Position numbers and translations under genes: made by a program. The notes under the pieces were generated by a model that saw nothing but the letters and a program-made list of their open reading frames with translations, searched no databases and was not told the origin of the DNA. From a virus (Duplodnaviria > Heunggongvirae > Uroviricota > Caudoviricetes), in the IMG/VR virus record IMGVR_UViG_2700989363_000008, positions 1 through 31,580 of that record: DNA of 31,580 nt; one strand, written 5' to 3'. Shown in pieces: positions 4,245 to 13,280 of this stretch (the first letter of the stretch is position 1; every line of letters begins with the position of its first letter).

Positions 4245-4694
4245 CTATTTAATTAGTGATGCTGCGTATTCGATTAGATATAACTTAGGTGCCAACCAGA
4301 TTTTTAACCATGTCATATTGGTTACTACAGCAATAATAAAACTTACCCACAGAACAAAAACTGCTGCTAATGGTAAGATAAGAAAACTAATCTCACCGTT
4401 ACTTTCCCAAATCATAGTCGGTTTGTATTTAGGCTTCCCTTTTTCCCATGACCATCCTTCATTATCGAACTTACCAATTTCAACTTTTTGGTACTGTTTC
4501 TTCATAAACCAAATAACCAGCGGGATTGTTGAAATGGCTATTAATGTTTTAATCAGGCTATCAACCATATTCCATACCAGCAACTGATGAACAACATCCG
4601 GAATCTGAGCCTGACTGAATGCAATGGCGGAATCAATTCCATCGCTGGCCTTCTTCAATAAATCAACAAGAATTTTATTTGCTTCTTCTTGCAT
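4245..4694 (-). CDS. Small membrane protein (~149 aa, two predicted transmembrane helices), unknown function
   Basis: ORF 4245-4739; start preferred at the internal Met (4694), which has AGGA 6 nt upstream. Hydrophobic stretches LIKTLIAISTIPLVIWF and ISFLILPLAAVFVLWVSFIIAVV. AT-rich codon usage unlike the flanking phage genes. Confidence 0.55.
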   Translation of the reverse strand: MQEEANKILVDLLKKASDGIDSAIAFSQAQIPDVVHQLLVWNMVDSLIKTLIAISTIPLVIWFMKKQYQKVEIGKFDNEGWSWEKGKPKYKPTMIWESNGEISFLILPLAAVFVLWVSFIIAVVTNMTWLKIWLAPKLYLIEYAASLIK

Positions 4695-8780: not shown

Positions 8781-8872
8781 AGCTATTATTTTTTTGCCTG
8801 GGTAAGCTAACCCGGCGATGCGCATCGCGGGTGGGCTTTAGGTTCAGCCTATAGCTCTGGCATGGGTTGACC

Positions 8873-9675: not shown

Positions 9676-9987
9676 ATGTTTAACGTGATAACCCACCCTG
9701 CAGCACTGGATGAACTGCTTGAACTACCAGATGATTTGCGAGGTCGCATGACCAGATTAATTGAGCGACTGGAGAAAGAAGGCAACAAACTGAAGATGCC
9801 CCATAGCCGTGTAATAGGTGGAGGGCTTTTTGAACTACGAGTAGGGGATAAAAACATCGCAAGAACGCTGTACGCCTACGCGACTGGTAACGAAATTTAT
9901 CTATTGCATGCATTTGTAAAAAAGACACAGAAAACACCGGTGAAGGCTATCGAAATCGCCAGAACTCGCCTGAAGGAGATGAACTGA
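9676..9987 (+). CDS. Type II toxin, HigB/RelE-fold (phage Gp49-like family)
   Basis: MFNVITHPAALDELLELPDDLRGRMTRLIERLEKEG...GGGLFELRVGDKNIARTLYAYATGNEIYLLHAFVKKTQKTP fits the Gp49/HigB signature as recalled. GGAGG SD before ATG 9676; stop overlaps the antitoxin start (TGATG). Confidence 0.8.
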   Translation: MFNVITHPAALDELLELPDDLRGRMTRLIERLEKEGNKLKMPHSRVIGGGLFELRVGDKNIARTLYAYATGNEIYLLHAFVKKTQKTPVKAIEIARTRLKEMN

Positions 9988-10274
9988 TGAAAGCGAAAGG
10001 CATCCCGTTTAACGAAGTAAAAGAAAAACTCCTCAACACTCCAGAAGCCGTCAAAGGATATGAAGAGGCCGACAAAGAGCTGGAGATGGTCGAAATGCTA
10101 TACGAAATGAGGGAAAGAGCAGGTTTAACGAAATCAGCTCTGGCTGAACGAATGGGGTTGCGACCGTCAGCCATCAGCCGCCTGGAAAGCAATCCTTTAG
10201 GGGCAAGTATGAAAACTTTGGCTAAATATGCTCATGCCTGCGGCGCAACCATCGATATTCGCGCTGTTTATTAA
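9987..10274 (+). CDS. HTH-XRE antitoxin (HigA-like), partner of the Gp49/HigB-like toxin
   Basis: 95-aa protein with HTH segment LTKSALAERMGLRPSAISRLE; translationally coupled to the upstream toxin. Only plus-strand pair amid minus-strand genes. Confidence 0.8.
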   Translation: MKAKGIPFNEVKEKLLNTPEAVKGYEEADKELEMVEMLYEMRERAGLTKSALAERMGLRPSAISRLESNPLGASMKTLAKYAHACGATIDIRAVY

Positions 10275-10316
10275 TTAGACTCTTTTACTACCCCGTCCAG
10301 AAGGGCGGGGTGTGCA

Positions 10317-10520
10317 TCAATGATGTGAACGCTCAACAGCGATAGTTTTCTGACAATGCTGGGCAATCTCTCGCGACATGTTGATGAGTCGTGAAACCTC
10401 ACCAATATGTAGGCTGGCTTCTGGAGAAGCCAGGGTGACGCTAACCAGATCCAGAACGGCGTCAATATCTCTTAAATTTGAATCGAGTTGTTCAAGAGTT
10501 GATACGGCTGCTTCAGACAT
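10317..10520 (-). CDS. Small protein (67 aa) downstream of a LexA box; candidate SOS-induced antirepressor or similar
   Basis: ORF MSEAAVSTLEQLDSNLRDIDAVLDLV...; the only gene immediately downstream (minus strand) of the LexA box at 10557-10576. Confidence 0.45.
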   Translation of the reverse strand: MSEAAVSTLEQLDSNLRDIDAVLDLVSVTLASPEASLHIGEVSRLINMSREIAQHCQKTIAVERSHH

Positions 10521-10556
10521 TAGATCTCATACCATTTAACTAAAAAAGGTTATTTA

Positions 10557-10576
10557 TACTGTATAAAATTACAGGT
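10557..10576. promoter_or_regulatory. LexA (SOS) box: TACTGTATAAAATTACAGGT
   Basis: Exact CTGT-N8-ACAG with AT-rich spacer, matching the E. coli consensus TACTGTATATATATACAGTA at most positions; about 37 bp upstream of the 10520 start codon. Confidence 0.6.
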
Positions 10577-10602
10577 TAAAACTCAAACTTTACGGTCAAT
10601 TT

Positions 10603-10845
10603 TCAATGAATTAACTGCGTAAACTGCTGTGTGGCCCGATACTTATGCTCTCTCCCTATGCCACGATCAACTTTCTCAAGAAGTCCAGTACGGACAGCAG
10701 AATCAAGCATCCTTTTAACAATTCTGCTATTTAACCCAACATCAAAAGCAAGCATCGAAGCGAAAACAAACCCATCACCACCATCAGAAAAGCTCTTTTC
10801 GCTCCGTTTTCGTATCATTTCAAAAAGCAATGCCTTTTTATCCAT
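10603..10845 (-). CDS. Hypothetical protein (80 aa)
   Basis: ORF with GGAGGG SD; a family-2 palindrome overlaps its ribosome-binding region. Confidence 0.45.
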   Translation of the reverse strand: MDKKALLFEMIRKRSEKSFSDGGDGFVFASMLAFDVGLNSRIVKRMLDSAVRTGLLEKVDRGIGREHKYRATQQFTQLIH

Positions 10846-11205: not shown

Positions 11206-11658
11206 TTACTTAACCCAATTAACTACACCGCCAGCGGCCACAACCGCCCTTTCACAGTCACGCTCATATCTCAAAGGTTGAAATACACCATCAATAAAAT
11301 ATTTATCTCCACCAAACGCTGCAGGAAGTGAAACAGAAAACTGAACATGACCATCCGGAGTTACCGGAGAGTTGCCAGCCTCATACGCCACACGCATCCA
11401 GTGCAGAAGCGTTTCAGTGCTCACACAGCCGCAATCAACATCAATTTTGCCGTGCTGCCGTTCCAGCCATTGCTCAAAAGTTAACTTGTAAGTTTGGCTT
11501 ACAGGTTCTGCACTATCAGCTTCGCGCCGCTTCTGTAGCTCTGCTGCCATCGCTCTCACGACTTCAACTGGTGCCCTTGCAGCAAACTCTATGTTGGTGA
11601 TCAGCTCATTAAGATATTGCTCGCCTGGATACTGTTTCTTATCGGTTATAGTGGTCAT
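11206..11658 (-). CDS. Hypothetical protein (~150 aa)
   Basis: Start at internal Met (MTTITDKKQYPGEQ...) preceded by AAGGAGAGTGAT-ATG, the same initiation cassette used by other genes in this operon. Confidence 0.5.
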   Translation of the reverse strand: MTTITDKKQYPGEQYLNELITNIEFAARAPVEVVRAMAAELQKRREADSAEPVSQTYKLTFEQWLERQHGKIDVDCGCVSTETLLHWMRVAYEAGNSPVTPDGHVQFSVSLPAAFGGDKYFIDGVFQPLRYERDCERAVVAAGGVVNWVK

Positions 11659-11659
11659 A

Positions 11660-12046
11660 TCACTCTCCTTTTCCCTGAAGCATAGCAGCGCGGCAGGCAT
11701 TCCAGCCTCTCACCTCTGCAATAGCGGCAACAGCATCAACCGCGTACATGCTAAGAGGATTAGGCATTGGTTTTTCTTCCGGTACTACTGGAACGGGTGG
11801 AGCGGCGTAGACCTCAATAATTCCATTATCAATAGGCCATTCTCCATCCTTGAGGTAGTCACTTGTGCCGTCAACTTGCTGTTCTGCAATGTGGAATGCA
11901 CCTATTGGTTTTGCTTCCAGCGATGCCAGAGCAATTCGTGCCAGTTCTTCCGCTTCTTCTGCTGGCAGTACAACGTTGCTACCAGGTCCGTATGTTTCGC
12001 GCCACTGTTTGATTGTCAGTAGTCGCTCTTTGGTAATAGTGGTCAT
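11660..12046 (-). CDS. Hypothetical protein (128 aa)
   Basis: ORF MTTITKERLLTIKQW... with SD AAGGAGT; N-terminus MTTIT shared with the downstream gene. Confidence 0.5.
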   Translation of the reverse strand: MTTITKERLLTIKQWRETYGPGSNVVLPAEEAEELARIALASLEAKPIGAFHIAEQQVDGTSDYLKDGEWPIDNGIIEVYAAPPVPVVPEEKPMPNPLSMYAVDAVAAIAEVRGWNACRAAMLQGKGE

Positions 12047-12758: not shown

Positions 12759-13280
12759 TCACTCTCCTTTGATGCGAATGCCTGTTGCAATGCTGTTTAT
12801 GATGCTGTCAGTGCATGGGGTAGAAAGCTGGGCATCTCCAGCAATTTTCATGACCTCAACATCCGCATATCGAATACCGAGGTGTATCAGACCGGCTATA
12901 CCTGACTTAAGTCGAACATTTTCCATAAACAGATCTTTTTCCCGCTGTTTAGCGGCTTCCAACTCCATCGACAATTTTTCCAACTGCTCTTTATGCTTCT
13001 TGTATTCCTGATACGCGTGCCAAGACTGACCTTTGCGCACACTATCAGTGATATCAGCAACCTGCTCCGGTGTTAGCGTGGTCAGTGGCTGTGCTGGAAA
13101 AATCATCACTTTCCCGGCATCCCAATCAAAACCCGCCTGAATTGACTGAACCTCAACTGATGGTGTTGAACCGATGCGACCAGGCGAATGAACAACGATC
13201 GTTACATCCATATCGCGACGATGGCTGTGGTTGTTGGACAAAATACGATTCACCAACTCAGAAAATTTGGAAAATTTCAT
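12759..13280 (-). CDS. Hypothetical protein (173 aa) with central coiled-coil
   Basis: ORF only; no family assigned. Confidence 0.45.
   Translation of the reverse strand: MKFSKFSELVNRILSNNHSHRRDMDVTIVVHSPGRIGSTPSVEVQSIQAGFDWDAGKVMIFPAQPLTTLTPEQVADITDSVRKGQSWHAYQEYKKHKEQLEKLSMELEAAKQREKDLFMENVRLKSGIAGLIHLGIRYADVEVMKIAGDAQLSTPCTDSIINSIATGIRIKGE

Follow-up and report, generated by a model that had tools for sequence, protein, structure and literature searches.

We consider it very likely that a 67-residue open reading frame on the minus strand of this phage genome (hereafter ORF67) is an orthologue of antC, and that it encodes a two-helix, SOS-triggered antirepressor of an N15-like telomere phage. 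The window, meaning the whole stretch of 31,580 nucleotides that was analysed, supplied the basis for this reading: a LexA operator upstream of the gene, the conservation of that operator, the coding status of the frame, its orthology with a locus of N15, its paralogy with AntA, and the apparent absence of the cleavage dyad from the CB repressor. By analogy with N15, and carried over from the literature on that phage, it would also be expected that the gene is under LexA control, that its product has antirepressor activity, and that the repressor is non-proteolytic. The preliminary description of this region had named the 67-residue protein as a candidate antirepressor, and this proposal is supported by the relationship to N15, by a match to PHROG 10889, and by similarity to AntA and to a gene of phage PY54. 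The coordinates of the relevant features are collected in Table 1.

Table 1. Positions in the window of ORF67, its regulatory elements and related genes
Feature	Position	Strand	Basis or remark
tad-ata module (N15 gp49/gp48)	9676-9987, 9987-10274	plus	Pfam Gp49/DUF891 (PF05973) RelE-like toxin and HTH_3 antitoxin; converges on ORF67
GC-rich hairpin, gap between ORF67 and the convergent ata-like gene	10290..10311	minus	Possible non-canonical terminator; weak
ORF67, putative AntC-type antirepressor gene, 67 aa	10317..10520 (including stop)	minus	Homology, PHROG, dN/dS, AlphaFold2
Weak ribosome-binding region, GGTATGAG	10526..10533	minus	Read from the sequence; GGTA conserved in the alignment
Alternative overlapping -10, TATAAA	10553-10558	minus	Read from the sequence
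Predicted LexA operator (SOS box)	10557..10576	minus	Plus strand TACTGTATAAAATTACAGGT, minus strand ACCTGTAATTTTATACAGTA
Putative -10, TACAGT, within right half of LexA box	10558..10563	minus	Read from the sequence
Putative -35, TTGAGT, of antC-like promoter	10581..10586	minus	Read from the sequence; TTG invariant in relatives
cB prophage repressor, presumed target of ORF67, 198 aa	16059..16655	plus	78% identical to N15 CB/gp38
c4-a1b1, isrK and C4 antisense RNA (immA control region)	21431-21631	plus	Rfam, above gathering score
antA-like gene of immA operon, 77 aa (N15 gp31 homologue)	21846..22079	plus	63% identical to N15 gp31

ORF67 and the antC locus of N15

The region under study shares 99% identity with the Escherichia phages YDC107_1, of the genus Ravinvirus, and PhiR46_1, and the window belongs to a Ravinvirus, that is, to an N15-like telomere phage of the linear-plasmid type. 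The N15 layout can be followed through the open reading frames of the window and the annotation of its relatives, from the terminase, lysis, adenine methylase, cro, Q and cB genes to a RepA of 1327 residues, an immA-type operon, a protelomerase gene and sopAB. Within this layout ORF67 closes a long array of co-directional genes on the minus strand, which runs from cro/Q. Its upstream neighbours are homologues of gp46 and gp47, the nearer being an 80-residue protein 68% identical to gp47, and beyond its 3' end lies a homologue of the N15 toxin-antitoxin module gp49/gp48 (tad-ata, RelE/Xre-type). RNA folding of the 61-nt stretch that contains the hairpin in the convergent gap gave -15.9 kcal/mol (z = -1.9), so that the hairpin is no more than marginally stabler than shuffled sequences. 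The hairpin has no U-tract on either strand and is not in the terminator scan list; because of the marginal stability and the missing U-tract it is not claimed here as a terminator. At the equivalent place N15 has a hairpin with runs of A and T on its flanks. Elsewhere in the window, an IS009 small RNA was matched above the Rfam gathering score on the minus strand at 27790-27993, just downstream of the sopB-like gene.

ORF67 begins with the ATG at 10520-10518 and ends with the TGA at 10319-10317, and the GAG of the weak ribosome-binding region is 5 nt before the start codon (6 nt to its A). Another ATG, at 10535, meets a TGA after two codons, and the start at 10520 is therefore the one common to the family. 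The pattern of substitution identifies ORF67 as a real gene, since differences within the family fall mostly at third codon positions (19/9/30 over the three positions in the comparison with N15, for instance) and pairwise dN/dS was 0.12-0.42 in eight pairs out of ten, those with unsaturated dS. The family alignment contains 26 invariant columns, among them SPEASLH. An AlphaFold2 model with a mean pLDDT of 91.5 predicts the protein to be a helical hairpin, in which two helices (residues 3-29 and 33-66) are joined by a turn at the invariant SPEAS. The family appears to be narrow, as a search of 1.84 billion representative proteins returned nine matches, of which four are repeat-rich large proteins and probably spurious. 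At least 1000 contigs of E. coli carry the exact protein and hundreds more carry its relatives from Klebsiella and Enterobacter, and all named public copies are described as hypothetical or uncharacterised (Gp47 in phiKO2).

The closest link to a phage of known behaviour is to N15 itself. Using tblastn, ORF67 was found to be 55.6% identical to N15 positions 39619-39807 over 63 of its 67 residues (E 9e-16). The N15 GenBank and RefSeq records (AF064539) have no feature annotated there, so that ORF67 and the N15 frame are alike in being annotated as antC in no public record. The N15 frame has gene 47 on one side and the convergent genes 48 and 49 on the other, and is preceded by a LexA box, CCCTGTGTTTATATACAGTA, 37 bp from its ATG. 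When the whole N15 genome was scanned, just two strong LexA boxes were found, one of 23.0 bits at 21658, before gene 26 (a UmuD homologue), and the other of 20.9 bits at 39562, before the frame at 39619-39807. Because the only other strong box precedes the umuD-like gene 26, the frame is, by elimination, probably the published antC, and it is this frame which we take to be the antC of Mardanov & Ravin 2007 (J Bacteriol 189:6333). The literature was also searched for the coordinates of N15 antC, and this returned none, only secondary citations. By both sequence and position, ORF67 is orthologous to this N15 locus.

The two genes share more than their coding sequence. Both are flanked by a gp47 homologue and, in convergent orientation, by the tad-ata module, both have a LexA box and a TTG-17-TACAGT promoter-like arrangement 36-37 bp before the start, and their cognate repressors are 78% identical. 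They differ at about 45% of residues, with helix 2 and the C-terminal tail taking most of the changes, and in length, with 67 residues in ORF67 and 70 or 75 in N15, where an in-frame upstream ATG could be used that in the window is closed by a TGA. As AntC is 55.6% identical between the two phages while CB is 78% identical, it is possible that the specificity of AntC-CB binding differs between them.

In those passages of PMC3121763, PMC4488713 and PMC11652158 that cite Mardanov & Ravin 2007, induction of N15 is attributed to AntC, a LexA-controlled antirepressor. This agrees with a statement of the preliminary description that telomere phages of this family are reported to be induced through such an antirepressor and not by cleavage of the repressor, as does the report that the N15 repressor was not cleaved after ciprofloxacin, established by in-gel labelling (Silpe et al. 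2023, PMC10432266).

CB, AntA and the anti-repressor of PY54

The presumed target of ORF67 is the CB repressor, which has an HTH_3 domain followed by a sub-threshold match to Peptidase_S24 (21.3 bits against a cut-off of 23.3). In an alignment with UmuD, the catalytic Ser60 is matched by Asn115 of CB and the catalytic Lys97 by Gln153, although the alignment is weak (E 0.43) and was the only one obtained to solved S24 proteins. Around the second position the CB motif ITIQRL corresponds to FTVKKL of UmuD, and N15 CB shares the Gln. To the extent that this weak alignment can be relied upon, CB appears to lack the Ser/Lys dyad and its S24-like domain to be degenerate, which bears out the earlier remark that the cB-like repressor has no obvious autocleavage dyad. 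Without the dyad CB would be unable to cleave itself, and a phage with such a repressor would need an antirepressor in order to respond to SOS.

A second match to the family was found in the window through P0018, a distant member of the ORF67 family. This is the antA-like gene of the immA operon (Table 1), which directly follows the C4 RNA (21544-21631) and an icd-like frame. Its N15 homologue, gp31, is presumably the antA of Ravin et al. 1999, given the gene order. ORF67 and the antA-like product are 31% identical over 61 residues (E 7e-8) and have in common the motif S-x-EAS, which in ORF67 is at the turn between the helices, and the profiles of the two families align with an hhalign probability of 83% (E 9e-6). 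On the strength of the pairwise identity and the profile alignment, AntC and AntA are paralogues, as far as sequence comparison can establish this. Among the genes of the immA operon are antA, icd and antB (PMC4488713, PMC10612081), and AntA is described as acting against the prophage repressor. The regulation of the two genes would be quite different: AntA (N15 gp31) follows icd and is under the control of the C4 antisense RNA, whereas ORF67 would have a LexA-controlled promoter of its own. They also differ in location, as the immA gene is in the other genomic arm and the C4, isrK and c4-a1b1 RNAs are 11 kb from ORF67. ORF67 is not itself the gp31 orthologue, which is the frame at 21846-22079, and it is outside the icd-antA-antB operon. 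In the same operon, the antB-like gene (22076-22858, plus strand; BRO-N/KilAC type, homologous to N15 gp30) is interrupted at codon 56 by an in-frame stop, which divides it into frames of 55 and 176 residues. The copy in YDC107_1 is intact, with 258 residues, and the split gene may be a pseudogene or reflect a sequencing error.

A third relative is found in the Yersinia phage PY54, where a gene annotated as 'antA, anti-repressor' (in the region 11276-11865) encodes a product 42% identical to ORF67 over 48 residues and 35% identical to the immA AntA. In its right-arm location, too, the PY54 gene corresponds to antC, with a convergent toxin-antitoxin gene and the gene for the adenine methylase coming after it. 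A dinI homologue precedes it, and in front of dinI there is a LexA box of 23.2 bits. The gene is closer to AntC than to the AntA of the immA operon, and the name 'antA' in the PY54 record is probably misleading. There are differences from ORF67, in that the PY54 anti-repressor has 87 residues and forms a two-gene unit with dinI, while ORF67 has 67. Of functional relevance, the homologue of this gene in another Yersinia telomere phage, P840 (vB_YenS_P840), blocks lysogenisation when it is expressed (PMC10612081).

Although homology to these proteins favours an antirepressor, it could be argued that ORF67 is a LexA-controlled SOS accessory gene of another kind, encoding a division inhibitor, a DinI-like modulator of RecA or LexA, or some other host-interaction factor. 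The protein gave no family match in Pfam or NCBIfam, and its best PHROG, phrog_6301 (E 1.8e-35), is of unknown function. Foldseek comparison of the AlphaFold2 model with viral structures returned nothing below E 0.7, a result which is uninformative because a two-helix hairpin is too generic a fold. Moreover accessory genes of prophages do occur behind LexA boxes, gene 26 (umuD) of N15 being an example. We nevertheless judge an accessory role to be improbable. ORF67 is homologous to the N15 antC locus, to AntA/gp31, to the 'anti-repressor' of PY54 and to phrog_10889, which is annotated as 'anti-repressor' (E 6e-8); in PY54 a separate dinI stands beside the homologue, so that the role of DinI is already filled there; and a repressor without the cleavage dyad implies that the phage needs an antirepressor. 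The fallback suggestion made earlier, of an SOS-induced division or host-interaction factor, thus found no support. ORF67 is also distinct from the large antirepressors of the P22 Ant, BRO and KilAC types, an assignment that was rejected as the protein has no match to Pfam ANT, Bro-N or KilAC.

The LexA operator and the putative promoter

The preliminary description reported a canonical LexA box about 37 bp upstream of ORF67. Its coordinates were correct and the gap between box and ATG is 36 bp. The box is in the 82-bp interval between the stop codon of the 80-residue gene (10603-10845, minus strand) and ORF67, and is the sole occurrence of CTGT-N8-ACAG in the window. It had also been proposed that the site be scored with a LexA weight matrix, and for this a symmetrised matrix was constructed from a set of 20 SOS boxes of E. 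coli (after Lewis 1994 and Fernandez de Henestrosa 2000). The 20-mer scored 19.7 bits, in the middle of the range of the training sites (12.7-25.5), and 19.2 bits once the most similar training site was left out, while the runner-up position in the 31.6 kb scored 10.6 bits. The heterology-type index of the box is 4.7, against a training range of 0.5-9.2. The LexA site that GenBank annotates at p95 of phage 186, used as a positive control, scored 26.0 bits and was the only strong match in that genome. Judged by its sequence, the box therefore has the gammaproteobacterial LexA operator pattern with an AT-rich centre, and a score within the range of proven sites.

Homologous loci were collected from phage records, species-representative genomes and IMG/VR, giving 60 loci that represent 31 distinct versions; a scan of genome contigs for homologues gave two loci only. 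The distinct loci are from Escherichia, Klebsiella, Enterobacter, Pseudocitrobacter and metagenomic phages, with protein identity to ORF67 down to 49%. In all 31 the best match to the LexA matrix is 36-40 bp 5' of the start codon although the flanks diverge, and the perfect CTGT-N8-ACAG is present in 29. The left half-site has a one-base change in phiKO2 (ATGT) and in Kpn74 (CTTT). When the 28 distinct upstream regions were anchored on the box, TTTG, containing the TTG of the -35, and TTnTATACAGTA were invariant while the surrounding and intervening bases varied, and CTGT was kept in 26. The region of the -10, TATACAGTA, is invariant in all relatives, and the TTG of the -35 is exactly 17 bp from TACAGT in every one of the 28 regions.

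A consistent reading of this arrangement is that TTGnnn-17 bp-TACAGT is a promoter and that the operator extends across its spacer and -10. The window version, TTGAGT-17 bp-TACAGT, has 8 of 12 consensus matches and was missed by our promoter scan because this is one below the threshold of 9/12. Whichever of the two candidate -10 hexamers is used, TACAGT or TATAAA, bound LexA would occlude the promoter. A similar arrangement is annotated at p95 of phage 186, where the -10 is likewise inside the LexA site, in that case as the left half of the box. Further from the gene, 5' of the proposed -35, there is another partly conserved block at 10586-10610 on the minus strand, which reads GAAAnnTGGCTGTATCG in N15-type loci and TTGAAAATTGACCG in the window, where it contains the -35-like hexamer TTGACC. 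It may serve as a binding site or as an additional promoter.

Given the place of ORF67 in the genome, it might be supposed that the antirepressor owes most of its expression to read-through from the early operon that CB represses, that it serves to lock in lytic growth and not to set off induction, and that LexA is not its main control. ORF67 is after all the last gene of the minus-strand array from cro/Q, the terminator scan found none in the 82-bp gap between the gp47 homologue and ORF67, and the proposed promoter is weak. Against this, the LexA box and the TTG-17-TACAGT arrangement have been kept in all relatives while nearby bases drift, which would be difficult to account for unless LexA-controlled initiation were under selection, and N15 AntC is described, in the passages that discuss it, as a requirement for SOS induction. 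Expression under LexA and expression by read-through are also compatible with each other. Read-through as the principal source of the protein seems to us very improbable for these reasons. That the palindrome is a product of chance or is unrelated to LexA, and ORF67 an ordinary early gene, is scarcely credible: the bare core is insignificant alone (one observed against 0.33 expected, with at least one in 30 of 100 shuffled windows, or about 30%), but the full 20-mer score of 19.7 bits or more was reached in just 2 of 2000 first-order Markov windows, the site is the single outlier of the window, and its position is kept in the 31 distinct loci, including those of homologues 49-60% identical, and in PY54 with its different operon layout.

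A proposed induction pathway and its context

The following sequence of events is proposed for the phage. In the lysogen, host LexA bound at 10557-10576 would keep ORF67 off, since the spacer and the -10 of a weak sigma-70 promoter are both within the operator. Upon DNA damage RecA would become active and LexA would cleave itself, allowing the promoter to fire and ORF67 to be made. ORF67 might then bind or titrate the CB repressor, so that CB would leave its operators, the cro-Q early operon would be derepressed and lytic growth would follow. Read-through from the early operon into ORF67 could then create a positive feedback, which is to be expected since ORF67 ends that operon and the scan found no terminator before it. 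The exact promoter hexamers, the binding of ORF67 to CB and the feedback loop are elements of this scheme that we infer.

The same logic, in which a small protein made from a promoter directly repressed by LexA, with the operator over the -10, inactivates a repressor that is not cleavable, is seen in Tum of coliphage 186 and in GfoA/GftA of the Gifsy phages. Tum is, however, a protein of 146 residues with a DinI-like C-terminal half, whereas ORF67 has 67 residues and no DinI part. Membership of ORF67 in the Tum family was rejected, as BLASTP gave no alignment at E <= 100. The pair of dinI and anti-repressor genes behind the LexA box of PY54 resembles a split analogue of Tum, the two halves of which represent both functions.

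If the relationships among the antirepressors are considered together, a broader design can be tentatively suggested, although we regard it as rather doubtful. Enterobacterial telomere phages might carry two paralogous antirepressors against the same non-cleavable CB, with AntC responding to LexA and the SOS system and AntA to a C4-type antisense RNA, and the 'antA' of PY54 and P840 might be an SOS-wired, AntC-type gene that is coupled to dinI. The paralogy of AntA and AntC and the SOS wiring of the PY54 'antA' are possibly a minor novelty. If this paralogy and two-input design are undescribed, and if the 45% divergence of AntC reflects a changed specificity for the repressor, these phages would offer a natural system in which to follow the evolution of antirepressor specificity and of cross-talk between co-resident plasmid prophages.

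The SOS switch itself was published for N15 in 2007 and is textbook knowledge for this group of phages, and for this reason our finding leaves the understanding of the mechanism unchanged. ORF67 would be a diverged AntC with the same regulatory layout in a related Ravinvirus, and its name is missing from the databases. The practical value is in closing an annotation gap, by naming antC both in the copies now listed as 'hypothetical' and in the N15 record. The linear plasmid prophages concerned are widespread, including in clinical Klebsiella, and can probably be induced by SOS-triggering antibiotics such as fluoroquinolones through LexA, AntC and CB. The combination of box and open reading frame may provide a simple marker for predicting inducibility.

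A second strong LexA-type palindrome, CACTGTAAAAATAAACAGTG, was observed in other telomere phages, where it scores 17.6-19.6 bits and falls within the opening ten codons (MENTVKINSA) of the gene for the adenine methylase. Its position is 13240-13259 in PY54, 4268-4287 in phiKO2, and about 4300/4753 in the Klebsiella telomere phages L005, L007 and L040. N15 and the window do not have it, and the methylase of the window starts with MFKTTNIHG at 8825. The palindrome is identical in PY54, phiKO2 and L040 and one base off in the other Klebsiella phages, with different flanks. It is possible, judging from the motif, that the methylase or the late region is under SOS control in the phages that carry it.
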